Assembly (NCBI GenBank): GCA_045660045.1
Contig: JAZRDB010000007.1
Location: 5,180 to 69,179 of the forward strand
Length of the DNA stretch: 64,000 nucleotides
Direction: 5' to 3'
Source: Alphaproteobacteria bacterium
GTDB taxonomy: Bacteria; Pseudomonadota; Alphaproteobacteria; CAAHEQ01; UBA3637
The notes under the pieces were generated by a model, which saw only the letters and a list, made by a program, of their open reading frames with translations, ran no database searches and was not told the origin of the DNA. This document shows positions 1,470-52,300 of the stretch, in pieces; the first letter of the stretch is position 1, and the number at the start of each line of letters is the position of its first letter. Made by a program: the position numbers and the translations under genes.

Positions 1470-2153
1470 ATGGATATTAAACAAAAATTATATTGGCTTA
1501 TGCAAGCGGGCATTTCTTCTTTTTGTGCCGACACGCCTAAACGCAACGAAGTTGTCGCCCCCACAAAAGATGACACACCGGCCACAGATAAAGCTTCAGC
1601 CGTCGCCCATAAAGCCAAGGATTTATCCACCTTAAACTCGGATAAGCAATCTTTTTCATTGTCTTCGTTAAAGAAAACAGCCACACACACCGTTTTGGGA
1701 TTGGGGCCGCAAAAGCCACACCTCATGTGCATTTTAGAAACACCAGATGCACAAGCGGACAAATCTGGTCAATTATTGAACAGTTCTCAAGGAGAGCAAC
1801 TAAAGAAAATGATGGCTGCAATCCATTTGGACATAGAAAAAGACGTTTACGTTACTTTTCTAAGCCCGTGGCGTACGCCGGGCAACCGTCCATTGACCAA
1901 CGCCGAACGCGCTTTGTTTTTACCATTTTTAGCACGCGAAATAGAATTAGTCCAACCCCAAAAAATTTTATTGTTTGGCGCCGGCGTTACCCATGCTTTA
2001 TTAGACATCGAATCGGTTGCCAAAGCACGTGGCGCATGGCACAGTTGGCAACAAATTCCTGTCCGCGTCACATTACCCCTTTCCGCCCTCAAAACCACAC
2101 CCTTGCGACAACAAGCATGGGACGATTTACAAGAGGTAGAGAAATCTTTTTAA
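1470..2153 (+). CDS. Uracil-DNA glycosylase superfamily protein (family-4-like, degenerate motifs)
   Basis: 227-aa ORF. The segments LETPDAQADKSGQLL...GEQLKKMMAAIHL...FLSPWRTPGNRPLT...LLFGAG follow the family-4 UDG layout by eye. The N-terminal LYWLMQAG extension resembles alphaproteobacterial UDG-like proteins. Confidence 0.5.
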   Translation: MDIKQKLYWLMQAGISSFCADTPKRNEVVAPTKDDTPATDKASAVAHKAKDLSTLNSDKQSFSLSSLKKTATHTVLGLGPQKPHLMCILETPDAQADKSGQLLNSSQGEQLKKMMAAIHLDIEKDVYVTFLSPWRTPGNRPLTNAERALFLPFLAREIELVQPQKILLFGAGVTHALLDIESVAKARGAWHSWQQIPVRVTLPLSALKTTPLRQQAWDDLQEVEKSF

Positions 2154-2161
2154 ATCATTAA

Positions 2162-2192
2162 CAAAAAAAGAGGGCCAATGGCCCTCCTTTCT
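2162..2192. terminator. Bidirectional intrinsic terminator between convergent genes
   Basis: GAGGGCC-AAT-GGCCCTC hairpin at 2170-2186, with an A7 run on one side and a T-rich tract on the other. Confidence 0.6.
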
Positions 2193-4798
2193 TACATTGG
2201 TGTACAATTCCCCGTTCCCGAACATTTATAACGATCAATGCTAGACTTGCTTGGTTTATTAATAATCACCAAATAGCCAGAACTCGACGTCCTTTTGGCC
2301 TTAAACAGCTTCGTCGTTGTATTCCCCGGACAATAAAAATCACTCCACGTACACTTGTCCTGTATACAAATTTCACCATTCCACGTTTTCTTCACTGTCC
2401 CCGCAGAATCGGCAACTTTTCCACTAAAACGAGCGCTTGTGTCTGTTGCCGAACTAAATGTTCTGAAACATTTATTTGGGCACAACCAAACATTTGCATA
2501 TGTATCTGTGGTTGCCGTTTTACCAGATCCTTTGCACGCTTTACATGCGGTGCCATCCTTATAACATTCCGCATTGCAAGTAAAGGATGTTGCGTCCTTG
2601 CCAGAACATGTGGCACAAGATGGGCAATTTTGACACGTGCCATTAAGAATCACCTTTCCGCTTGGACAGAAACAAGCGCTTGCTGCCGTTTTGGCTGTTC
2701 CATCTGTTGTTTTCCCATTGGGGCATTTCGTGGCTCCCGTATTTGCTATCACATCTTTATACCACCCCTTTGCAACAGCCGTACATTCAGTTGCACCGCT
2801 TTTAAGTTCATATCCTTTTTGACACAGACAATTGCTTGTTGATGTGCTGCCTGTGGATGTAGTTGTTGTGTTGGCTCGCCAATCGACGCATTTTTTGGTC
2901 CCAGTGTTTCCTACAACATCTTTATACCATCCCACAGCAACAGCCGTACATGCAGTAGCACCACTTTTAAGTTCATAACCTTTTTTACAAACACAAGAAC
3001 TTGTTGATGTACTGCCTGTGGAGATTGTCGTTGTATTGGCGCGCCAATCAACACATCGTTTGGCGCCCGTGTTTCCTATAGTATTTTTGTACCACCCTGT
3101 GAAAACGGCCGTACAGACCCCTTCTACCATTTCATATCCTTTGTCACAAACACAAGACCCTACACCTTGATTGTTGCCACCATCACAAACTTTATTGGTA
3201 TCGCATGCCGTACCCGCAGCAGCGGGCGTATATACCGCATTTGTTCCCGAAGATGTACATTTTGTTGTACAAGTATCCGCCACAAATCCATCACACCCAT
3301 TTTTACAAGTTTCATCCGATCTCATCACATAACCACTATCACACACCCATGTACCCCTTTCATTATCATTATTTGGATCTCCACAATGCTTATGAGTACT
3401 TGGATTGTTGCCCCAATATCTGTCAACAGGCGCATAAGTATAAACCGCTGTGTGATTCTCTACCCTACATGCTGTTTTACACGTTGTGGCTGTAAAATTA
3501 TTACATGTTTCTATTGGTTTACATTCACCATCATCACATTGTTCGGTTCCTGCACAAGTGCTATCCGCATCACAAACGCAGGTTTGTTTGTCTTCATCCC
3601 AAAAGGGCAGTTTTGTATAACTTCCCTCACCACATTCAAAACAGGTAGACGACGCCCCACGATTATAGGCTGCACCATGGTAACCGTCATTACATTCACA
3701 TTGTTGAGTCTCTTTGTTATACGTTGACTTTCCATCGTTACAAGCCAGTTCACACATATGACTGTCCTCATTACAATATTCGTTACTACCACAGTCGCCA
3801 TCTGTTATACATTCAACACATTGTCCATTATATGCATAAGGTCTGTTGGTCGGACAAGTTGGGCAATTTTCATCGGGATCACAAGCACAGCATTGATTTC
3901 CTTCACAACACTTTTGCCCCTCTTCGCAATCATTGTCAATGTCACAGGCTCCATTGACACATGTACAGGAAGCATCATATAATCCCTTTCCAAGTTCGTT
4001 GGTGCACTGTTCGCCAACCTTCAAACAATCGCATGAGGTGTGATCACTATTCACCACCAACGGAGCCTCGCACGTGTCACAACTTGAATTTTCTGTTGTT
4101 GTTTCTTCCGTACGATATGTGTTACCCGTACAAGGTTTACATGTTTCATCACATGTGCCATATCCCGTTTTATAATACCCCGCACGGCACGTTAACACAC
4201 CATCCGAAACGGATCCTCCACTTGGGATTGTGCGTTCTGGACACCCATCTTCATTCGGATCCTCCTGACTCTGTTGGGGCCTCCACCAAGGATATAAACC
4301 ATGCAAATGATATCCTGGACTTTTTTGGAATAAATATTGCAACACATTCTTTGTTTTGTCCTTTTGGCAAGCTGTAATTTTTTTCCCTGTATCATCTGTT
4401 ATGGCTATTAACCCAATTTCGCTTGTTTTTTTCTCACTTGATTGTATTTCTCGCGACTTTTTTAACATGCTTTCACACACTTCTTGGGTCAACGCATCTG
4501 TCTTCACCCAAAAATAATTGCTCATAGGTCCATCAATACCGTTTTCCACTTCCAAGCCAATGCTGTGCGGACCCTCCCTGGAAATTTTATCTTGCGCATT
4601 TGATGGCTTTGCTTGCAAAGCGTGTTGACGAATCACAGCTTCTTCCATCACCGCCGTCGTCAAATCTTTGGCTATCACGTCAGAACGTAACAAGCCCCAA
4701 ACATGGAATCCTCCCAATGTCAACAACATTAACAGGGCTAACACCCCTAACATTTCCAACATACTGCGTCCAGATTCGTTCTTCTTGTTTTTCTTCAT
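2192..4798 (-). CDS. Cysteine-rich modular prepilin-like surface protein (868 aa)
   Basis: AAGGAG SD precedes ATG 4798. The N-terminus MKKNKKNESG/RSMLEMLGVLALLMLLTLGG has a basic tip, a Gly, a Glu at +5 and a ~20-residue hydrophobic helix, matching the class III (type IV prepilin) signal pattern. About 76 of ~78 Cys (hand count) lie after residue ~190, in CxxC, CxC and C-x-G-Y motifs. There are three 55-aa tandem units near the C-terminal third. Confidence 0.8.
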   Translation of the reverse strand: MKKNKKNESGRSMLEMLGVLALLMLLTLGGFHVWGLLRSDVIAKDLTTAVMEEAVIRQHALQAKPSNAQDKISREGPHSIGLEVENGIDGPMSNYFWVKTDALTQEVCESMLKKSREIQSSEKKTSEIGLIAITDDTGKKITACQKDKTKNVLQYLFQKSPGYHLHGLYPWWRPQQSQEDPNEDGCPERTIPSGGSVSDGVLTCRAGYYKTGYGTCDETCKPCTGNTYRTEETTTENSSCDTCEAPLVVNSDHTSCDCLKVGEQCTNELGKGLYDASCTCVNGACDIDNDCEEGQKCCEGNQCCACDPDENCPTCPTNRPYAYNGQCVECITDGDCGSNEYCNEDSHMCELACNDGKSTYNKETQQCECNDGYHGAAYNRGASSTCFECGEGSYTKLPFWDEDKQTCVCDADSTCAGTEQCDDGECKPIETCNNFTATTCKTACRVENHTAVYTYAPVDRYWGNNPSTHKHCGDPNNDNERGTWVCDSGYVMRSDETCKNGCDGFVADTCTTKCTSSGTNAVYTPAAAGTACDTNKVCDGGNNQGVGSCVCDKGYEMVEGVCTAVFTGWYKNTIGNTGAKRCVDWRANTTTISTGSTSTSSCVCKKGYELKSGATACTAVAVGWYKDVVGNTGTKKCVDWRANTTTTSTGSTSTSNCLCQKGYELKSGATECTAVAKGWYKDVIANTGATKCPNGKTTDGTAKTAASACFCPSGKVILNGTCQNCPSCATCSGKDATSFTCNAECYKDGTACKACKGSGKTATTDTYANVWLCPNKCFRTFSSATDTSARFSGKVADSAGTVKKTWNGEICIQDKCTWSDFYCPGNTTTKLFKAKRTSSSGYLVIINKPSKSSIDRYKCSGTGNCTPM
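2714..3115 (-). repeat. In-frame 165-nt tandem repeat, about 2.4 copies, inside the 868-aa gene
   Basis: Copy boundaries fall at the Cys codons at 3115, 2950 and 2785. Each unit encodes CTAV..GWYK....NTG..KCVDWRANTTT.STGSTSTS.C.C.KGYELKSGAT. (55 aa). The third copy diverges after about 24 aa. Confidence 0.85.
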
Positions 4799-4807
4799 TT
4801 TTTCTCC

Positions 4808-7249
4808 TTATGCTCGTTTCAAATATTCTTGAACCAGTTGATCTACGTCTGTAATTTCAGATTGTAATTTTTCCGCCAATAAAATATTTTTACTACCAGA
4901 TGAATAAACTTTCAAATAGGATCCTAAACCGGACAAATCTACATCTAAAATAACAGATTCATGGATGGCCGGTCGGCTGACCAAAATAGCGTATTTTCTG
5001 TCCGCCCACTCTTTGCCTAGAATAAAGTTTAATTCACGCGGTGTCAAGTTCCATGTTGCATAATCGGATGGGTTCGCCTGTGGATTTCGGAAGAAAACGA
5101 CTGTTTGACATTGACCACGAATCACATCACCCAAGCCCGCTTCATCCAAAAATTTCGGTTGCTGGAACGCACAAAGATATGCTTGACGTTTTTTACGTCC
5201 TTCTCGAAGCCCTACGATAAAGCTTTCTTTAAACATTGGGTGTTCCAACATTGGCGCCGTTTCATCGATCATAATCATACTGGGCGCACCGGTTGAACTG
5301 GCCAATTCATCAATACGGTGCATGATATAGCTGATGACCGCAGGCGCCAAAGATTTATTGCTATCATTAAAGATGCTTGTAAAATCAAACGCCACATAAC
5401 GGTTTGTTAAATCCAGATTGTCTTCAGGCGAGTTAAAAATATTACCATATTGATCCGGATCAATCCATCTGTTCAATTCACGACGCATATAACCGTTTGG
5501 CGCAAAACACGCTTTGTATAAATTCTTTAACATACGATCACTTTTCGGCAAATACTCAAAAGCCGTCACAACCGCACGAGCAATTTCAGTTTCAGAAACA
5601 GCATCCTTTCCTTCTGTGATATCGCGCAACCAACCGCGCAAAAAGGCTCTGTTCGGCAAATTATCTTCAATTAAAAATGGATTTAAAGAAACAGATTCCT
5701 CGCCATCAAACTTGATGTATGGCGCCCCATTCACCACAGCAAAAACCTTGGCACCTTTATTACGATCAAAGAAGTATGTATGCAAATCTGGGATACGCAT
5801 TGCCTGAGAGGCAATAAAGCTGAAGAATGTTGTTTTACCTTGACCGGTCGGACCAATCAAGGCGGTATGTGCCACTGCGTACTGTTCCTCTGTAACATGG
5901 AATTGGAAAGCATACGGCGTTCCGGTAATCGTCCTAAAATAAGATAACGGAACCGGACCCCAGTCTGATTTCTTGCGACCTTCGGACGGTTGATCAATCA
6001 TCGTCGCACAGGCAACCACATTGGAAAGGTATAAATATGTTCTTGGGTACACATCATAGGTTGGGAATTGGTTAAAGAAAACAGCCTGTGCGGACCATCC
6101 CTCACGCACCGGTGTCACGTTATGAATACGACAAATACGCTCTACCTCTTCTTGACCAAACTTCAATTCGTCAGGCGAATCTCCATATAAAATCATGGAC
6201 ATTGCATATTCATTTAATGTTTGGCTGTCCGCGTCCGTGGCATCCAACGACGCCAACGCTTCATTATATTGGTCCAACACGTTTTGAGAAAAACTTGTCA
6301 TATAGGCCATTTTACGTTGGTTAAGTAAAAGTGCTGTCGACTTGGACATTGGAACAGCTTTAATATTATGCAAAAAGACCATTTCCATATCAATGCTCAA
6401 CAAATCCGCCACCATTTGTTCGTCCATATAATCACCCGGCTTTCTTATCCCCATCATGATGGCTAATTTTTCTCGATCACCCGCAAAGAAACGCACAATT
6501 CCTTCGTCCTTGGTAAAATGAACGTAATCTGATGTTAAAAGCACATTCAAATAATCGCCTTGTTCTCCATGAATAAGCGGCTTTGGACGAGAAAGCGGAC
6601 TTGCCAACCGAGCAAACACCCATAAAGGACTTCTATCTTCTTGATTTACACCTTCTTTTTCTGTTAACAAAACGGGATTATACATATCCAAAATGGAAGT
6701 CAACGCATTGGATGCCTGTTCTAAATCACGCATAGCTTCCTTACGATCGTTCACGCTGATAATAATGTAGTGACGATTTTTAAAGATACGATGCATATTT
6801 TCCATCCACAATTCATCGATCTTGTGTAATAATTTGTTATCTTGAAAGGCCTCCATTGTGTCTAATTGAACTTTATCGCGCACCGTCATCATGCGCACAA
6901 CAATTTCCAATTCTGCCATAGAATCAATCCAGCGTTTTCTGGCACTTGTCAAGGATACACGATCTTCCGGAGCCATCAAGGTGCTGTCTACACCTTTTAC
7001 CTCAAACACACGCGCCAACGCACCATTTCTCAGATGAATAGTTGCGCCATCTTCATCTAATTTTTCAAACGGCAAAAAGTCGGAAAGACGTGTTTCTTTT
7101 GGCTTTGGCAATACCCACTCACCAATTTTTGTCACGGATGCAAACGCCAACAACACGGCAGATATCAACCCCAAAACCGCCAAAACCATCGGAGTCGAGG
7201 TAGCGCTCGTCAAGATAAAATCAATTATGTTCGCGTCTATATTATTCAT
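4808..7249 (-). CDS. virB4: Type IV secretion system ATPase VirB4/TrbE/CagE family
   Basis: 813 aa with an N-terminal TM segment. It has Walker A LIGPTGQGKTT, Walker B-like MIMIDETAP and GRKKRQAYLCAFQQP. AAGGA SD. The start lies 12 nt after the virB3 stop. Confidence 0.85.
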   Translation of the reverse strand: MNNIDANIIDFILTSATSTPMVLAVLGLISAVLLAFASVTKIGEWVLPKPKETRLSDFLPFEKLDEDGATIHLRNGALARVFEVKGVDSTLMAPEDRVSLTSARKRWIDSMAELEIVVRMMTVRDKVQLDTMEAFQDNKLLHKIDELWMENMHRIFKNRHYIIISVNDRKEAMRDLEQASNALTSILDMYNPVLLTEKEGVNQEDRSPLWVFARLASPLSRPKPLIHGEQGDYLNVLLTSDYVHFTKDEGIVRFFAGDREKLAIMMGIRKPGDYMDEQMVADLLSIDMEMVFLHNIKAVPMSKSTALLLNQRKMAYMTSFSQNVLDQYNEALASLDATDADSQTLNEYAMSMILYGDSPDELKFGQEEVERICRIHNVTPVREGWSAQAVFFNQFPTYDVYPRTYLYLSNVVACATMIDQPSEGRKKSDWGPVPLSYFRTITGTPYAFQFHVTEEQYAVAHTALIGPTGQGKTTFFSFIASQAMRIPDLHTYFFDRNKGAKVFAVVNGAPYIKFDGEESVSLNPFLIEDNLPNRAFLRGWLRDITEGKDAVSETEIARAVVTAFEYLPKSDRMLKNLYKACFAPNGYMRRELNRWIDPDQYGNIFNSPEDNLDLTNRYVAFDFTSIFNDSNKSLAPAVISYIMHRIDELASSTGAPSMIMIDETAPMLEHPMFKESFIVGLREGRKKRQAYLCAFQQPKFLDEAGLGDVIRGQCQTVVFFRNPQANPSDYATWNLTPRELNFILGKEWADRKYAILVSRPAIHESVILDVDLSGLGSYLKVYSSGSKNILLAEKLQSEITDVDQLVQEYLKRA

Positions 7250-45248: not shown

Positions 45249-45277
45249 TTGACAAAAAGAAAAAAGAAGTGTATACT
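45249..45277 (+). promoter_or_regulatory. Promoter of the 45306 gene
   Basis: TTGACA, 17-nt spacer, TATACT. Confidence 0.55.
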
Positions 45278-45305
45278 GTATAAGAACACGTCGAAAGGAT
45301 CATAT

Positions 45306-45737
45306 ATGTCACGCAAAACTTCAAGTGCTTTACAAAACAAGGATGCGGCGGCTACCATATTAGGAAATAAAACCCTTCAAGAAATGGAGCGCTGTTTGAT
45401 GCAAAAATTCAAACATCAAAAACAAATGTTGGGTGATGAAAAAATGGCTGAATATGTTGAACAAAAATTCTTGTTGCCTGCAATCAAAAATAAGGCAAAC
45501 ATTAAAACACCCGAAACATTTCAATATCTACAAGCTATTTATGGTGCTGCCTATCGCGCCAAAATTCCATTAAATCCATCGGAATTTTGGTATGTCCAGA
45601 ATCAAGCTGAACAGGTCGGCGCCCAGGAATTAGCTGATTTTGTTAAAGGACAATATGAAAAATTTAAGCGCGTTCACATTTGGTTGAAATGCAATCCCTT
45701 AGCGAAATTCAAACGTTTTTGGTTTATGAAAGATTAG
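45306..45737 (+). CDS. Hypothetical protein (143 aa)
   Basis: Start refined to ATG 45306 (AAAGGA SD). No recognisable motif. Confidence 0.55.
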   Translation: MSRKTSSALQNKDAAATILGNKTLQEMERCLMQKFKHQKQMLGDEKMAEYVEQKFLLPAIKNKANIKTPETFQYLQAIYGAAYRAKIPLNPSEFWYVQNQAEQVGAQELADFVKGQYEKFKRVHIWLKCNPLAKFKRFWFMKD

Positions 45738-45754: not shown

Positions 45755-45783
45755 TTGACTTTTCATTCCGTTTTAGCTACAAT
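45755..45783 (+). promoter_or_regulatory. rpsB operon promoter
   Basis: TTGACT, 17-nt spacer, TACAAT. A ~140-nt leader follows, containing the TGCCAAAA/TTTTGGCA hairpin. Confidence 0.55.
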
Positions 45784-45929
45784 AATGTTGTTTTGATGTA
45801 AATCGAAGCATAACACATGTGGGGCAGGCGCCCTTTGGGTGTTCCAGAGGATCGCTTCCGGTGTGCCAAAAAATGAGTTTTGGCATATTATCCCCGCAGA
45901 GGAATAACTGGAAGAAGAAAGGATTTAAA

Positions 45930-46697
45930 ATGTCTATTCCAACAATTACTATGCGTCAGCTGATTGAAGCTGGTGTTCACTTTGGGCATAATGCCCGCAG
46001 ATGGAACCCAAAGATGGCTCCTTATATTTATGGTACACGTGAAGGTGTGCATATCATGGATTTGAACCAAACAGTGCCGATGCTCTATCGCGCCATGGAA
46101 GCAGTTCGTGATGTTGCCGCCAAAGGTGGTAAAATCTTGTTTGTTGGCACAAAGGCTCAGGCTCGTGAGTTGGTCGCGGATGCTGCGGGTCGTTGTGGTC
46201 AGTTCTATGTCAATCAACGTTGGTTGGGCGGTATGTTGACCAACTGGAAAACAATTTCTGCCAGCATTAAACGCTTGAAAGATATTGAATCTAAACAAGA
46301 AAAGGGTGCCTACGAAGGTTTAACAAAGAAAGAAAAGTTAAACATTGAACGCGAACGTGAAAAATTGATGGCCTCTTTTGGCGGTATCAAAGATATGAAC
46401 GGTCGTCCAGACATTGTGTTTGTGATTGATGTGCCACACGAAAGTTTGGCCGTTTCCGAAGCCAAGAAGTTGGGCATTCCTGTGGTTGCTATTTGCGATT
46501 CCAATGCTAACCCAGATGGTATTGCTTACCCAATTCCGGGTAACGATGATGCCGGCAAAGCAATTGCTTTGTACTGCAACTTGATGGCCGGTGCTGCTTT
46601 GGATGGTATCCAAGCTGAACTGAAAGCCGCTGGCGTTGATGTCGGTGCTGCCGAAGAAGTCAAAGAAGAGGTTGTTGAGGCAGAAGAGAAGGCATAA
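45930..46697 (+). CDS. rpsB: 30S ribosomal protein S2
   Basis: Start refined to ATG 45930. The product begins [27 protein letters not shown]. Confidence 0.97.
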
Positions 46698-46698
46698 T

Positions 46699-47277
46699 AT
46701 GCTTGATGAGTCTGTAAAAAGAATTTTGGATTCTCCCGTGAATTTGCTTCGTCCCTCAAGCGAAACAGAAAGGCAATTACTTTTTCCAAAGAACTGCAAG
46801 GGTGTTTTTTATACCATAGGATTGCAATCTGGACAAAGTTTTGTGGCACAGTTTCCGGGACACAATGAACAGGATGATCCATTTTCTTTGGACAACTTTG
46901 CTTTTTTGTTGCGCCCGTTGAAAAATTTAGTGCCGCAATTAGAGGAAGTTAAGTGGTTATTTACGGGTAGCATTGCTGGGTCTGGAACACGGACGATTTG
47001 TGAGTTGACTCCTGAAACAACAAAGCAAGAAAGAGTGGTTTTGGAGAATATATTTGCATCACATGAGGTGCAATCGAATTATTCCGGCAGACGATCTTAT
47101 AGTCATCATGAAATGTTTGTTAAGTTGCACGATGTATATAATCAATTGATGGAAAACGATCGCTTGAAACATGCATTGATGGTGGGACAACAAAGACTTC
47201 ATGATTTAATGATAGAAAAAAAAGATAATAATCCAGCAAATCCAGTGATCCGACGCACAGAGAACGAAAGGGGCTAA
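46699..47277 (+). CDS. Hypothetical protein, paralog 1 (192 aa), inside the rpsB-tsf operon
   Basis: The ATG lies 1 nt after the rpsB stop. The N-terminus MLDESVKRILDSPVNLLRPSSETERQL...GVFYTIGLQSGQSFV parallels the next gene. Confidence 0.7.
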   Translation: MLDESVKRILDSPVNLLRPSSETERQLLFPKNCKGVFYTIGLQSGQSFVAQFPGHNEQDDPFSLDNFAFLLRPLKNLVPQLEEVKWLFTGSIAGSGTRTICELTPETTKQERVVLENIFASHEVQSNYSGRRSYSHHEMFVKLHDVYNQLMENDRLKHALMVGQQRLHDLMIEKKDNNPANPVIRRTENERG

Positions 47278-47283
47278 GCAAAA

Positions 47284-47910
47284 ATGGCAGAACAATCTGT
47301 AAAACAAATTTTAACAGCTCCCATTGTTTTTCTTCGCCCTTCAAACGAAGAAGAGAGAAGGCTTTATTGTGATCAGCCGAATGGTGGATGGTTTTATACG
47401 TTTGGTTTAAAATCTGGTATCAATTATGTAACGCGCATTGATAAAAAAAGAGATGTGTTTACATTTCGTCCTTTAGATAGAACTATCACGACTCCGTTGG
47501 TGCAATTTCAGTGGAAGTCTACACGTACAGAATTTCCTGCGCTTTTCCCTGAGTTTGATGTTGTTTGTCAAACAGCTCCCGGAACATCGCAAAAAGAGAC
47601 AGAATGGTTTGAAAAAATTTTGGGACCGTCAGCGGAAGAATTAAAAGTTAAAGCAGCATTTGGTCTTTTGCAAACAACGTGCTATCGTTTTCATTACCCA
47701 GAAGTATTGACGAAAGTGGTGGCCATAAAGAAACAAATAAAAGAAAATGAATACTGGCAACGACAAGCATTGAAACAGGAAAAAGAGATAAAAAGAATAT
47801 TGCTAAAGGGGCACGCAAAATTACAAGAATTGATGATCCCGAATAACTCTACACAAAACAAAATCGTTCAACAAAAAACAATACAAGAAAGGAGAAAACA
47901 AAATGGCTGA
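47284..47910 (+). CDS. Hypothetical protein, paralog 2 (208 aa), inside the rpsB-tsf operon
   Basis: The N-terminus reads MAEQSVKQILTAPIVFLRPSNEEERRL...GWFYTFGLKSGINYV. The stop overlaps the tsf start by 8 nt. Confidence 0.7.
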   Translation: MAEQSVKQILTAPIVFLRPSNEEERRLYCDQPNGGWFYTFGLKSGINYVTRIDKKRDVFTFRPLDRTITTPLVQFQWKSTRTEFPALFPEFDVVCQTAPGTSQKETEWFEKILGPSAEELKVKAAFGLLQTTCYRFHYPEVLTKVVAIKKQIKENEYWQRQALKQEKEIKRILLKGHAKLQELMIPNNSTQNKIVQQKTIQERRKQNG

Positions 47911-48787
47911 AATTACAGCAAAATTAGTTGGCGAACTGCGTGAAAAAACAGGCGCCGGAATGATGGAATGCAAAAAAGCATTGGTGGAAACAAATGGTGA
48001 TTTGGAAGCTGCTATCGACTTTTTGCGTAAAAAGGGTATGTCCGTGGCCGAAAAGAAAGCCGGTCGTGTGGCGAACCAAGGTGCTGTCGGTGTAAAGGTT
48101 GCTGGTAACAAAGGTGCTATGGTGGAAGTCAATATTGAAACAGACTTCGCTGCAAAGAACGCCGATTTCCAAAAGTTTGTACAAGATGTGACCGAGGTGG
48201 CTTTGAATGGCTCCAATGACGTGGAAGCATTAAAAGCAACAGCGATGAATGGTTCCACTGTTCAAGAAAACGTAGTCGCTTTGATTGCCAAAATTGGCGA
48301 AAACATGAGCTTGCGTCGTGTCGCCGTTGTGGAAGGAGAAACAGTTGTCCCTTACTTGCATACAACATTAGGCGATGATTTATGCAAAATTGGTGTGTTG
48401 GTTGGCGCAAGTGGTGCAAACGCCGCCGAAGTTGCTAAACAAGTGGCTATGCACATTGCCGCAACAGCTCCAAAATTCTTGAGCGTAGCGGATGTGGATG
48501 CTGAAACAGCGGCCCATGAACGCGGTATCTATGCCGAACAAGCCAAAGCCAGTGGCAAACCAGAAGCCATTATTGAAAAAATGGTGGAAGGCCGTATGCA
48601 AAAGTTCTATCAAGAAGCAGTGTTGTTGGAACAACCCTTTGTGATGGATCCAGACAAGAAGGTCAAAGACGTGTTGGCTGCGGCCGGCGTGACTGTGACA
48701 TCTTTTGCTCGTTTTGCTTTGGGCGAAGGCATTGAAAAGAAGCAAGAAGATTTTGCCGCCGAAGTGGCTGCGCAAATGAATGGTTAA
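47903..48787 (+). CDS. tsf: Elongation factor Ts
   Basis: 294 aa beginning MAEITAKLVGELREKTGAGMMECKKAL. Confidence 0.97.
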   Translation: MAEITAKLVGELREKTGAGMMECKKALVETNGDLEAAIDFLRKKGMSVAEKKAGRVANQGAVGVKVAGNKGAMVEVNIETDFAAKNADFQKFVQDVTEVALNGSNDVEALKATAMNGSTVQENVVALIAKIGENMSLRRVAVVEGETVVPYLHTTLGDDLCKIGVLVGASGANAAEVAKQVAMHIAATAPKFLSVADVDAETAAHERGIYAEQAKASGKPEAIIEKMVEGRMQKFYQEAVLLEQPFVMDPDKKVKDVLAAAGVTVTSFARFALGEGIEKKQEDFAAEVAAQMNG

Positions 48788-48807
48788 TTAAACGGAAAGG
48801 GGATCAC

Positions 48808-49362
48808 ATGAGTTGGGAACAAATTAAAACCGATATGCAAAACAATATGACAAAGGCCGAGGAAGCTTTGAAAAAAGAATTTGCTGGCCTGCGTACAGGA
48901 CGTGCTAGCACCGCCTTGTTAGATGGCATTATGGTGGAAGCCTATGGCTCGGTGGTCCCCTTGAACCAAGTGGGAAATGTCAGTGTGCCAGATGCGCGTA
49001 CCCTGTCCATTTCCGTTTGGGATAAAAGTTTAATTAAAGCCGTGGAAAAAGCAATTACTGAGGCCAATTTGGGTTTGAATCCCATGAATGATGGCCAATT
49101 GATTCGCTTGCCAATTCCACCACTTTCCGAAGAACGCCGTATGGAAATTGTGAAGATTGCGGGACGCTACACTGAAGAAGTGCGTGTTTCCGTCCGCAAC
49201 TATCGCCGCGAAGCCTTGGATGCTTTGAAAGCAATTAAAGATGGCGTGTCTGAGGACGATTACAAACGTTATGAAAAAGAAATCCAAGATTTGACAGACA
49301 AGACAATTGCCAAATTGGATGAAAATTTGAAAAACAAAGAAACAGAAATCAAGCAGGTCTAA
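48808..49362 (+). CDS. frr: Ribosome recycling factor
   Basis: 184 aa containing LRTGRAS..LLD and IRLPIPPLSEERR. Confidence 0.95.
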   Translation: MSWEQIKTDMQNNMTKAEEALKKEFAGLRTGRASTALLDGIMVEAYGSVVPLNQVGNVSVPDARTLSISVWDKSLIKAVEKAITEANLGLNPMNDGQLIRLPIPPLSEERRMEIVKIAGRYTEEVRVSVRNYRREALDALKAIKDGVSEDDYKRYEKEIQDLTDKTIAKLDENLKNKETEIKQV

Positions 49363-50081
49363 TGACAACGAAGCCCGAAAACGATAAATTACCAAAACAT
49401 ATTGCTATCATCATGGATGGCAATGGGCGTTGGGCCACCGAAAAAGGGTTGCCACGTACCGAGGGGCATAAGGCCGGCGCCGAAAACGTGCGCGTGATTT
49501 TGGATCATGCTCGGGCACGTGGTATTAAATATGTGACGCTGTATGCATTTTCTTCTGAAAACTGGAAACGGCCAAAAGAAGAAGTCAAAGTTTTGATGGA
49601 TTTGTTTCGTAAATATATGAAAGAAGACGTGGCTGAACTTCAAAAGAAAAAAGTCCGCGTGTCGTTTATTGGTGATCGGGCGCGCTTTCCTGAGGATATG
49701 CAAGAACGCATGAACGAAGTGGAACGCGAAACGGCTGAATACAATGATTTCCATGTGATTTTGGCGCTTTCTTATGGGGCGCGGGATGATATGATTGCCG
49801 CCATTAAACGTATTGCTATGGATGTCATGGATCGGCAATGTATGATTTCCAATATTGACGAAGAAGTGGTGAATAATGCCCTTTCAACACATGGGATTCC
49901 GTATCCGGATTTGGTGATTCGCACAAGCGGTGAGCAACGGATCAGCAATTTCTTGTTGTGGGAAATTGCCTATGCCGAACTTTACTTTACACCAATTTAT
50001 TGGCCTGATTTTAACGAGCAAGATTTAGATATTGCGATTGAGGCCTATGGTCGCCGTGAACGCCGTTTCGGCAAGGTTTAA
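49362..50081 (+). CDS. uppS: Undecaprenyl diphosphate synthase
   Basis: 239 aa containing HIAIIMDGNGRWA, AFSSENW.RP and RTSGEQRISNFLLW. Confidence 0.95.
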   Translation: MTTKPENDKLPKHIAIIMDGNGRWATEKGLPRTEGHKAGAENVRVILDHARARGIKYVTLYAFSSENWKRPKEEVKVLMDLFRKYMKEDVAELQKKKVRVSFIGDRARFPEDMQERMNEVERETAEYNDFHVILALSYGARDDMIAAIKRIAMDVMDRQCMISNIDEEVVNNALSTHGIPYPDLVIRTSGEQRISNFLLWEIAYAELYFTPIYWPDFNEQDLDIAIEAYGRRERRFGKV

Positions 50082-50106: not shown

Positions 50107-52300
50107 TTAGTATGGACATTGGCTTATAGATGCCCATTTAAAGCATTCGCCACTGCTGTTTGCACTAGACCAACCATTTTTGCCGCAGGTTCCATTGTGT
50201 TGATTGTTATCTGTTCTGCATTGGTTTCCATCCGCTTTCCAGTTGCTATTATACTTTGCCCGGCATGCAGCATTTAAGGTCATACAGCCTCCGCTTCCAT
50301 CTGAGCAATAGGTACAACCGCAGGTTTGATTGACACAGACTTCGCAAGTTCCACTGCTGTTACATGTATATGCTGTACTACATCCATTTCTCGTGTTGGG
50401 TTCGCAGGCATAACATGATGTGGCACTTGCAACACCATAAGTACAATATTGGCAAGCACCATTAATAAGTGCGTAGTTGGCCTGACATGAACATAATAGC
50501 GTGTTGTCATTATGAGTGGCATTTGTATAACAGTCGCAGTCGGTATGATTACTGTTTGCTGTTCCGGCACCACAATTAACACAAGAACTACCAGCTTTGC
50601 TTATTGTATTGTTTTGACAAGGAGAACAAGTCGTGCCAACCAATTCATATCCCGCTGGACATACACAGACACTGTCTTGTAATTCGAAATTATCTGGAAC
50701 TGGAGCCTTACCAACAACGACACCACGCACAAGAATAGTCTGAATTTCCCCAAAAGAATGCCTCTCCATCGGATTGACGGCGAGGTGGTACACCATTGAC
50801 ACATAATCCAGAAACAGTTGTTCCAGGATTTTTGCCAGCCAAGTGAGTGCAATATCCTTGATAGCAACGGTATTCGCCAGCACCGTGTACGCAGCCATCG
50901 CCATTAGTTCCTTTAGAAAAGCAAGAATGAAATGGCGAGCAACAGTGACCGGAACAACTTGTGTCATCTGATTTGTTCCAACACCACTCTTTACAAGTGT
51001 GCGTTGTCGTGTCACAAACTGTGCGTCCATCCGTTTTGTTGGCACAATTAGCATTGGAAAGACATTCAACGCAGGTGGTTTTAAAGATTTGAGGATATCC
51101 ATTATTGCAAACACAACTGCCATTCGTGAGAGGGCTAGCATTTGTGTAGCAGGTACAAGCTGTTTGTGTCCCGTTCGGCGTGCCAGCCCCACAAGAAATC
51201 GAGATGTTGTTTGGACAGATGGTGCCGGCTGGACACGATGTTTGTTCCGATGATCCTTCTGGACAATATTTTCCGGGATCACACGCTGTTGGCTCAATGG
51301 ATCCTTCTGGGCAATAAGATCCCTGTGGACAATTTTCGGGGATAGTCGTGTTGTCTTCGTCACAGAAGCTTCCGGCGGGGCAGGGTGTACAAGTTTTGTT
51401 AACTGGATCTAATACATAGCCAGCTGGGCAATAACATCCCGATTCGTCTGACGTCTTTAAAAAAGGAGCCGTGCAGTTGAAAGTATCGCCAGATCCCCCT
51501 GGACAAGTGGCATATTCTGGACATTCAATGCAAACGCCATCGACCAGATAATATCCGGATTGGCACTTGGTGCAAACATCCTCGGCTTGGTCACATTCGG
51601 AACATGACTCGGGACAACAATTTCCCTTTTTACATCCACCTTTTGTGACGCATTCGCCTTGGAAGCAAACTTGATCGTCAGTACAATCACACGACGGCGG
51701 ATCAACACAGATACCGTTTTGACAAGAACGTGAGGCAGGACAATCGGAATTGCTTGAGCAGGTCTTTGGAATATAACTGCCTTTTGCCCCTGTGTTTTTT
51801 GAAAAAGTAACTTGAATAGTGTTGGTGCTATCACATTCTGGTGCCCCGACAATTTGGCCTTTTGTGTTTTGTTCCGTTGATATTTTATAGGTTGTATTAT
51901 TAACCTTAATTCGATCAGCCCCAGCCCAAGATTGTCTTAACAATCTTTTGCAGGTTGGTTCATTAATGTCCCCTACAAAATAAGAATAATAATAACCATC
52001 AGCTTCTTCTGAAGCGGTTATTTCTTTGCCATTTCTTGTGGCCGTCACAAATTGACCTTCTACATTTTTTTTGGCGTTCTTATCAAATAAATCGGTTGCA
52101 AATAATTTTTTTTGACCTGGTTTGCCCTCCTGATTTAATTTGCCTCTGGCCATCAAATCGTCGTGAATAATTGCGGCATCGTGGGAAGCCATAGCCCATT
52201 GGTAAATTTTAAGACCACCTAATGATATTAGCGTCATAAGCGCAAAAATGGCAATCATTTCCAACAAACTGCGCCCAGATTCATTTAAAGATTTTTGCAT
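50107..52300 (-). pseudogene. Second cysteine-rich modular prepilin-like gene, split by a 1-nt frameshift (about 730 aa if repaired)
   Basis: True start ATG 52300 (AGGGAGA SD), with leader MQKSLNESG/RSLLEMIAIFALMTLISLGG. The Cys-rich frame of track ORF 50708-52444 continues in the frame of ORF 50107-51363. Deleting one base in the TTTTGGGG tract (50748-50755) joins ...DGEAFF to GEIQTILVRGVVVGK... Contains repeats of the type CPAGSFC, CPQGSYCPEGS and CDPGKYCPEGS. Confidence 0.7.

Follow-up and report, generated by a model that had tools for sequence, protein, structure and literature searches.

An orphan protein family encoded between rpsB and tsf in a lineage of reduced-genome gut alphaproteobacteria

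Introduction

The rpsB-tsf pair, which encodes ribosomal protein S2 and elongation factor EF-Ts, is among the most stable gene neighbourhoods in bacteria. In the canonical operon of E. coli, expression is subject to autoregulation by S2, and a stem-loop occupies the space between the two genes. Small factors that bind the ribosome are also well described; SmpB and ArfB each combine a small globular domain with a basic, partly helical C-terminal tail.

Here we analyse an rpsB-tsf locus from an alphaproteobacterium, contained in a stretch of 64,000 nucleotides (the window), in which two open reading frames, ORF-A and ORF-B, separate rpsB from tsf. A literature search for genes situated between rpsB and tsf found nothing relevant. 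The two proteins belong to an undescribed, lineage-restricted family.

Results

ORF-A and ORF-B lie within the rpsB-tsf operon

The features of the locus are as follows.

45755..45783, + strand: sigma-70-like promoter of the rpsB operon, TTGACT-17-TACAAT, with 10 of 12 consensus positions matched
45814..45923, + strand: rpsB 5' leader, an S2 autoregulatory element like Rfam RF01815 (cmscan, full model 1-132)
45927..46697, + strand: rpsB, ribosomal protein S2, 256 aa (open reading frame list; Pfam Ribosomal_S2 on orthologues in related loci)
46699..47277, + strand: ORF-A, 192 aa, member of the 'A' subclade (pLDDT 90.0, pTM 0.81; dN/dS 0.21-0.25)
47284..47910, + strand: ORF-B, 208 aa, member of the 'B' subclade (pLDDT 88.7, pTM 0.75; dN/dS 0.17 versus L045)
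47858..47910, + strand: dual-use segment, comprising the last codons of ORF-B (..VQQKTIQERRKQNG, then the stop) and the tsf initiation region (nucleotide conservation)
47903..48787, + strand: tsf, EF-Ts, 294 aa (open reading frame list; Pfam EF_TS on orthologues in related loci)
48808..49362, + strand: frr, ribosome recycling factor (open reading frame list)
49362..50081, + strand: uppS, last gene of the co-directional run (open reading frame list)

The promoter is the best plus-strand site directly 5' of rpsB and the only good plus-strand promoter of the area. The leader scored 36.3 bits with cmscan (E = 1.5e-4), which is below the gathering score of 40, yet it lies at the expected position. 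ORF-A starts with an ATG 1 nt past the rpsB stop codon (TAA, 46695-46697), and the ATG of tsf falls inside the end of ORF-B, giving an overlap of 8 nt (ATGGCTGA); the stop/start spacings from rpsB through ORF-A and ORF-B to tsf are +1, +6, and -8 nt. A preliminary description of this DNA had given the coordinates and lengths of the two reading frames, the 1-nt gap, and the 8-nt overlap exactly. The window has no pyrH between tsf and frr.

Within ORF-A and ORF-B, promoter searches returned nothing above chance level (9/12 matches), and no plus-strand terminator-like site was found from the rpsB stop through uppS; the sole plus-strand match of that kind, at 46114, falls within rpsB. The preliminary description had likewise seen no promoter or terminator signals. 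A ribosomal protein operon thus encloses ORF-A and ORF-B, which follow rpsB and precede tsf, and neither a promoter nor a terminator was found within this interval. Since the promoter and the S2 leader both precede rpsB and no terminator intervenes, the layout indicates a single transcription unit, rpsB-A-B-tsf-frr-uppS, with junctions compatible with translational coupling, and we regard this reading of the sequence as firmly supported. Transcription would proceed from the rpsB promoter through the S2 leader, and translation appears to be chained from rpsB through ORF-A and ORF-B to tsf. Given such chaining, and a tsf Shine-Dalgarno sequence located within the last codons of ORF-B, the two proteins would be expected whenever S2 and EF-Ts are made. 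Coexpression with rpsB and tsf, also proposed in the preliminary description, is supported by this anatomy, namely, the single 5' promoter, the S2 leader, and the tight junctions.

Both reading frames are maintained by selection

ORF-A and ORF-B are paralogous over their full length (BLASTP E = 1e-17; 26% identity over 223 columns), which bears out and extends a relationship previously proposed for the N terminus, and homologues are found at the same position in 13 further species. Comparison of ORF-B with its closest orthologue, from L045, gave a dN of 0.125, a dS of 0.73, and a dN/dS of 0.17; for rpsB, tsf, frr, and uppS of the same pair, dS was 0.87-1.5 and dN/dS was 0.02-0.04. ORF-A gave dN/dS values of 0.21-0.25 with its closest relatives. 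Across ten family pairs (ORF-B/L045 plus nine from different clades; an eleventh was left out because its dS was saturated), dN/dS was 0.16-0.34, compared with 0.01-0.07 for rpsB and tsf of the same genome pairs. These ratios are clear signs of purifying selection on ORF-A and ORF-B, roughly ten times more relaxed than that on the flanking genes. The presence of homologues in 13 further species, together with the dN/dS of ORF-B, argues that the frames are not open by chance. A de novo origin, or a nonfunctional spacer, was rejected in view of the dN/dS values and the confident predicted fold described below. There is firm support for reading ORF-A and ORF-B as real protein-coding genes that belong to a new orphan family.

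In a genome with a GC content of 40.9%, the GC3 values of ORF-A and ORF-B fall in the 43rd and 5th percentiles, and those of the flanking translation genes in the 83rd to 96th. The two genes therefore do not share the composition that marks their highly expressed neighbours, and this speaks mildly against their products being abundant core components.

The family is restricted to one lineage and is absent from many of its members

The family matched no entry in Pfam, NCBIfam, PADLOC, PHROGs, or the sequences of the PDB, and the absence of a known domain in the Pfam and NCBIfam searches agrees with the earlier failure to recognize one by reading the translations. An HMMER profile scan of 1.84 billion representatives found only 54 family clusters, and a word-indexed protein search returned 11 and 14 proteins for the two ORFs.

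The distribution of the family was surveyed in 80 species of the order, from 16 genera. Most of these genomes are metagenome-assembled, with completeness of 59-99%, and absence was called only where rpsB and tsf were contiguous on one contig. Copies were found in 13 of 21 species of the window's genus, 1 of 10 species of a second genus, and none in 14 further genera. The hosts form a group of gut and rumen alphaproteobacteria with genomes of about 1 Mb; the window's own assembly comprises 0.91 Mb in 15 contigs. For one relative, the label gives an alphaproteobacterial MAG of yak-rumen origin.

No copy was detected in 8 of the 21 congeners. rpsB and tsf are directly adjacent in six of them, one of which keeps only a 30-nt remnant; a seventh likewise shows a short spacer, with its tsf divided between two contigs, and in the eighth too little of the locus is assembled to judge. 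The family is likewise undetected in nine of the ten species of the second genus and in the 14 other genera, so that it is not a lineage-wide feature. The survey of relatives for degraded sequence, which the preliminary description had suggested, came out in its favor for the family as a whole, since most relatives keep intact reading frames under selection. Loss in at least 7 of 21 congeners means that the family cannot be a core ribosomal component, and on this genomic distribution its members are best classed as dispensable accessories rather than as a fixed part of the operon.

Arrays vary in copy number and, rarely, in position

Arrays in the rpsB-tsf(-frr) region range from zero copies to three or more domains, and about 30 of 34 copies stay within the operon. 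Six species have one copy between rpsB and tsf; four genomes have two (G000, which is that of the window, G003, G004, and G013), and G015 has three. In one assembly, a single copy is followed by a natural fusion of two copies, 360 aa in length. Two monophyletic groups are exceptions to this placement. One consists of copies between tsf and frr in G015, G019, and assembly L042. The other is a trio outside the operon, in G005, G004, and one further contig; the copy on the contig overlaps an RNase_T-family gene, and one of the outside copies apparently has its own upstream region. Within the second genus, the rpsB-tsf interval of G057 holds three copies, of which two have diverged so far that they were found only by profile-profile comparison (98% and 97% probability), and L037, which groups with that genus, keeps one rpsB-tsf copy with different genes downstream of tsf.

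The window's genome contains only two family copies, ORF-A and ORF-B themselves. Three different array configurations occur in a single metagenome, JGI 3300033463, and in G007 the contigs break inside the array. In G003 and G004, abutting in-frame tblastn matches gave the appearance of a fusion between S2 and the first copy; this was discarded, as a stop and four codons intervene on translation.

The family turns over by duplication, fusion, loss, and exchange

In a tree of S2 plus EF-Ts, array-bearing and copy-less species are interleaved. G017, which has no copy, is sister to seven array-bearing genomes; G013, with two copies, is sister to G006, with none; and the copy-less G001 is sister to assembly L043, with three domains. 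If the array arose once, this pattern implies at least five losses.

The family gene tree, in which ORF-A and ORF-B form sister subclades, disagrees with the species tree. The smallest rpsB/tsf dS values to the window (0.54-0.58) are those of G008 and its kin G005 and G020, yet the copies of these three genomes fall in another clade, at about 33% identity. Single A-type or B-type copies are found in the more distant G014 and L047; although these two genomes are sisters, one has a B-type copy and the other an A-type copy. In G003 and G004, nucleotide identity is 95-100% for rpsB and tsf, 60-70% for copy 1, and 83-92% for copy 2, and dS is 1.0 for copy 1, 0.40 for copy 2, and 0.15 for tsf. Copies this much older than their flanks point either to replacement by divergent alleles through recombination in the flanks or to allelic lineages that have been maintained for a long time; relaxed constraint alone would not yield such an excess of dS. 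Taken together, the sequence comparisons give firm support to a birth-and-death mode of array evolution, with duplication, fusion, and loss, accompanied by allele exchange. Differential loss of old paralogues, instead of recombination, could also produce the conflict between gene tree and species tree.

The end of the array doubles as the tsf initiation region

The final ~40 nt of the tsf-adjacent copy double as the ribosome-binding region of tsf. This dual-use segment contains an A-rich tract, an AAGGAG Shine-Dalgarno sequence, and the ATG, and every array-bearing relative has conserved its nucleotide sequence ahead of tsf. In almost all arrays of genus g1, the tsf-adjacent copy ends with an ERRxNG-type motif and overlaps the tsf ATG; the underlying DNA reads ..gttcaacaaaaa..gaaaggaga(c/a)aaaATGG. 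Because this DNA is at once the A-rich tract, Shine-Dalgarno sequence, and start of tsf, the conserved C-terminal residues reflect a dual constraint.

Copy-less species have rpsB-tsf spacers of 0-180 nt. The copy-less congener with a remnant, G018, has kept 30 of 30 nt of the array's 3' end, which fits the loss of a former copy, although the same stretch would also be constrained as the tsf initiation region. Three other copy-less genomes (G001, G006, and G011) carry a stem-loop between rpsB and tsf together with a degenerate version of the array-end motif. Within the window, the start of ORF-B (AAAATGGCAGAA) repeats that of tsf (AAAATGGCTGAA), and the junction motif AAAATGGC(A/T)GAA is duplicated at the two starts, as expected if duplications carried the junction along.

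Both proteins are predicted to adopt a helix-grip-like fold with a C-terminal tail

AlphaFold2 gave confident models for ORF-B (22 sequences; pLDDT 88.7, pTM 0.75) and ORF-A (56 sequences; pLDDT 90.0, pTM 0.81), and the two independent models share one fold. It consists of a short helix, strand 1, a second short helix, five strands, a helix, two further strands, and a helix of 34-44 residues, followed by a C-terminal tail of lower confidence that forms a second helix in ORF-B and no regular structure in ORF-A. The tail helices are predicted at residues 138-171 of ORF-A and at residues 140-183 and 189-206 of ORF-B, in line with the coiled-coil-like, K/E/Q-rich tails that had been noticed in the translations. 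Each protein is predicted to be soluble, about 190 aa long, with a compact α+β domain and then a basic helical tail; the antiparallel sheet wraps around the start of the long C-terminal helix in the models, an arrangement that we call helix-grip-like. No hydrophobic segments were found in the family proteins. The median pI is 9.1 for the family and 9.8 for the C-terminal third; ORF-A, with a pI of 6.4, is not a basic protein as a whole. Lysine and arginine are also present in the C-terminal tails of the three copies that lie outside the operon.

Foldseek searches of the PDB with both models, and of BFVD with the ORF-B model, gave no match at E ≤ 0.001. The best PDB matches were almost wholly Bet v 1-like/START (SRPBCC) proteins, which account for 10 of the 10 best for ORF-B (among them the AHSA1-like 3f08 and 3cnw, 7tmu, PYL3, ZhuI, kirola, and thebaine synthase) and 24 of the top 25 for ORF-A (among them 3f08, Fra a 1, Bet v 1, Pru av 1, PYL10, and Hyp-1). 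These matches are nonsignificant, with best E values of 0.033 and 0.2, TM-scores of 0.22-0.40, and rmsd values of 5-10 Å. None of the 56 members matched SRPBCC-clan Pfam models (Polyketide_cyc, AHSA1, Bet_v_1, START, and others) at E ≤ 5, and a family profile search against PDB sequences gave no match. For these reasons the fold is described as helix-grip-like, and the family is not filed in SRPBCC. E. coli RatA, the sole reported link between SRPBCC proteins and the ribosome, has been traced to a mis-annotated start codon (PMC11988751); we dropped it as a precedent for an SRPBCC ribosome binder, its ribosome-toxin activity being reported as an artefact of that start.

Most of the conserved columns of the 56-sequence alignment (L, E, F, G, L, S, G, F, L) hold a hydrophobic residue or glycine, and the alignment preserves no polar constellation of a catalytic type. 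Both observations make a binding or scaffold protein likelier than an enzyme, and we consider the family members more likely to be nonenzymatic on this basis. The basic median pI, the lack of hydrophobic segments, and the lysine- and arginine-containing tails of the outside copies also speak for a binding protein.

Discussion

Two readings of the family carry most of the weight. The one we lean toward, tentatively, is that of a dispensable, nonenzymatic binder which acts on the translation machinery and is caught in an evolutionary conflict. Its partner would be encoded by the same mRNA, either S2 and the 30S subunit or EF-Ts and EF-Tu, and the basic tail may contact RNA. The rapid turnover suggests antagonistic coevolution, for instance with phages or toxins that exploit translation factors. 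The link to translation is drawn solely from gene position. Vertical inheritance within a very stable operon, together with tandem duplication, could explain a conserved position with no functional link, and the ability of the family to live outside the operon, seen in three copies, was counted against the translation-binder reading. Almost as likely is that the genes hitch-hike in the operon and have a function unrelated to translation, as intracellular defence, counter-defence, or other conflict proteins. On this second reading the position would have two causes: the site would provide strong constitutive expression in a promoter-poor, reduced genome, and the extremely conserved flanks would let divergent alleles pass between species by homologous recombination. 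The valley of divergence between near-identical flanks in G003 and G004, the decoupled genealogies of cassette and flanks, the variation in presence and copy number, the three configurations within one metagenome, the contig breaks within the G007 array, the clade of copies that persists outside the operon, and a codon composition unlike that of the flanks all fit hitch-hiking. It is less easily reconciled with the fact that, in two genera and despite a changed downstream gene order, about 30 of 34 copies have stayed in this one operon, or with the fusion of the tsf start into the last copy, which makes the array part of tsf expression and not an independent module. Nor does the family show a PADLOC or PHROG match, a nuclease, NTPase, or other effector domain, or a partner gene; PADLOC defence and toxin-antitoxin models gave only noise (E ≥ 0.039), and the two-gene architecture of a toxin and its antidote does not describe ORF-A and ORF-B, which are paralogues of each other in a family where single-copy arrays are common.

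A more specific, and unlikely, version of the translation-binder reading is that the proteins guard translation factors. They would be cytoplasmic proteins of high abundance, produced in stoichiometric amounts with S2 and EF-Ts; bound to EF-Ts/EF-Tu or to the 30S subunit, they would protect these from phage proteins or interbacterial toxins that must dock there, or they would act as decoys for such attackers. Some contact-dependent inhibition tRNase toxins depend on EF-Tu or Tu/Ts (PMC5737660, PMC9071432). An arms race of this kind would explain allele replacement, copy-number change, and repeated loss, and with tandem paralogues such as ORF-A and ORF-B a broader set of attackers would be recognized. 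We give similarly little credence to a divergent SRPBCC housekeeping carrier that would hold a hydrophobic small molecule (a lipid, quinone, or similar) in a cavity between the sheet and the long helix. The superfamily's near monopoly of the best PDB matches for both paralogues suggests such a carrier, but no structural match reaches significance, the SRPBCC Pfam models match 0 of 56 members, RatA is lost as the fold's one reported tie to the ribosome (PMC11988751), and rapid turnover, repeated loss, and allele replacement are unexpected of a housekeeping protein. It is very improbable that the copies serve only as translated spacers, functionless as proteins, across which ribosomes are passed from rpsB to tsf and the ratio of S2 to EF-Ts is tuned, in place of the usual intergenic hairpin. 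The tight stop/start junctions, the tsf Shine-Dalgarno sequence inside the last copy, and the stem-loop found instead in copy-less relatives would all suit a spacer; against it, dN/dS values of 0.16-0.34 at unsaturated dS indicate selection on the amino acid sequence, conserved motifs and covariation are strong enough to give models with pLDDT of ~90, and copies persist outside the operon. Least credible of all is a self-mobile selfish element, homing-endonuclease-like or a transposon-borne cassette, targeting the rpsB-tsf junction. Insertion/deletion polymorphism at one precise site and the duplicated junction motif at the ORF-B and tsf starts are what one might look for, but the family has no nuclease, recombinase, or transposase domain, there are no terminal repeats beyond 12- to 26-nt matches at chance level, the window's genome holds only two copies, and the dS of the ORF-B orthologue pair, similar to that of its flanks, implies vertical descent in that pair. 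With neither enzyme domains nor repeats, this explanation was rejected.

In a lineage of gut symbionts with reduced genomes, the rpsB-tsf spacer has become a hotspot for genes of an orphan family, apparently chained in translation to two essential translation genes. Should the proteins act on the translation machinery, they would offer a rare example of a translation accessory that is dispensable, specific to one lineage, and quick to evolve, and they would point to a conflict around S2 or EF-Ts that has gone unrecognised. Should they act elsewhere, the locus still shows how a genome poor in promoters and mobile elements can house and exchange variable genes between its most conserved ones. 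In both cases, structural and interaction studies have a well-defined target in this family, for which there are 54 clusters and confident models but no annotation.

Comparison with known systems

In the Bet v 1/START/SRPBCC superfamily (3f08, 3cnw, PYL, and PR-10), an antiparallel sheet curves around a long C-terminal helix, as in the family models, which also have short helices near the N terminus. The models differ by an extra helix between strands 6 and 7 and by a basic helical extension of 30-60 residues after the domain, and the similarity is nonsignificant (E ≥ 0.03, TM 0.22-0.40), with no match between sequence profiles. With SmpB and ArfB, the family shares a predicted architecture of globular domain plus basic tail and a location among translation genes. 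No similarity in sequence or structure was detected, and neither factor is among the 50 best PDB matches listed; unlike them, the family is dispensable and fast-evolving, and the overlapping tsf initiation region, rather than protein function, sets part of its tail sequence.

Hypervariable hotspots of accessory genes between conserved core genes, such as defence islands and polymorphic immunity-gene arrays, resemble the rpsB-tsf arrays in their polymorphism of presence and copy number, in the birth and death of tandem paralogues, and in divergent alleles between near-identical flanks. The arrays described here have no known defence or immunity match and no cognate toxin gene nearby; they are occupied by one protein family only, and their hotspot lies inside an essential, apparently cotranslated operon, whereas defence islands lie between operons. 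In comparison with the canonical rpsB-tsf operon, the window retains the order of promoter, S2 leader, rpsB, and tsf, and its copy-less congeners have the usual short spacer with a hairpin. In the window, by contrast, 1.2 kb with two ORFs joined by chained-type junctions stands in place of the spacer, and the coding sequence of the second ORF contains the tsf initiation region.

Putative regulatory elements of the rpsB-tsf operon

A search against Rfam identified a match to the rpsB leader RF01815 upstream of the two paralogous ORFs, ORF-A (46699-47277, + strand) and ORF-B (47284-47910, + strand), which lie between rpsB and tsf:

45814-45923: RF01815-like rpsB leader, covering the full model length (36.3 bits, E = 1.5e-4)

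The score is below the gathering score of 40 for this family. The element is a probable S2 autoregulatory leader, and ORF-A, ORF-B, and tsf would come under its control as well. Three congeneric genomes with no family copy in the operon, G001, G006, and G011 (loci L015, L017, and L019), carry a GC-rich stem-loop between rpsB and tsf, exemplified by CAGCCCGAAAAATCGGGCTG from G001, where a T-run follows. The corresponding position is coding sequence in genomes bearing the tandem array. In the copy-less congeners the stem-loop may serve as an attenuator fixing the ratio of S2 to EF-Ts.

Flanking genes

A second orphan ORF of 162 aa is found at 45249-45737, between recA and rpsB. Its identity is 68% in the congener G007 and 33% in the related locus L045, where S2 is 97-98% identical; judged by these values, this ORF is fast evolving too. 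The listed TTG start overlaps a strong promoter-like site, TTGACA-17-TATACT (11/12), which makes the ATG further downstream the probable true start.

Downstream, the tsf-frr gap (48787-48808) lacks pyrH, encoding UMP kinase. AA_kinase (PF00696) gave zero matches across the whole source assembly (0.91 Mb, 89% complete) and was present in 14/14 control genomes, which suggests either reliance on external pyrimidine nucleotides or a gap in the assembly. Two sites carry large, repetitive ORFs rich in Cys, whose products are probably pilin-like or surface proteins:

50107-51363, - strand: within the window, immediately after uppS
L032 5215-6411: near the out-of-operon family copy of the congener G004

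Arrangement of family copies in related loci

In the region 1773-3079 of the related contig L039, another out-of-operon copy shares 7 nt with the 3' end of a gene of the RNase_T family (DnaQ-like exonuclease), and from this overlap it is a second case of a family copy predicted to be translationally chained to its upstream gene. At positions 4001-5083 of locus L043 (a contig from JGI 3300033463), two family domains are naturally fused in frame into one protein of 360 aa (P0045); it is preceded by a third family copy, which likewise terminates in ..ERKQNG and has an 8-nt overlap with the start that follows. The fusion arrangement hints that adjacent family copies may function as a pair.
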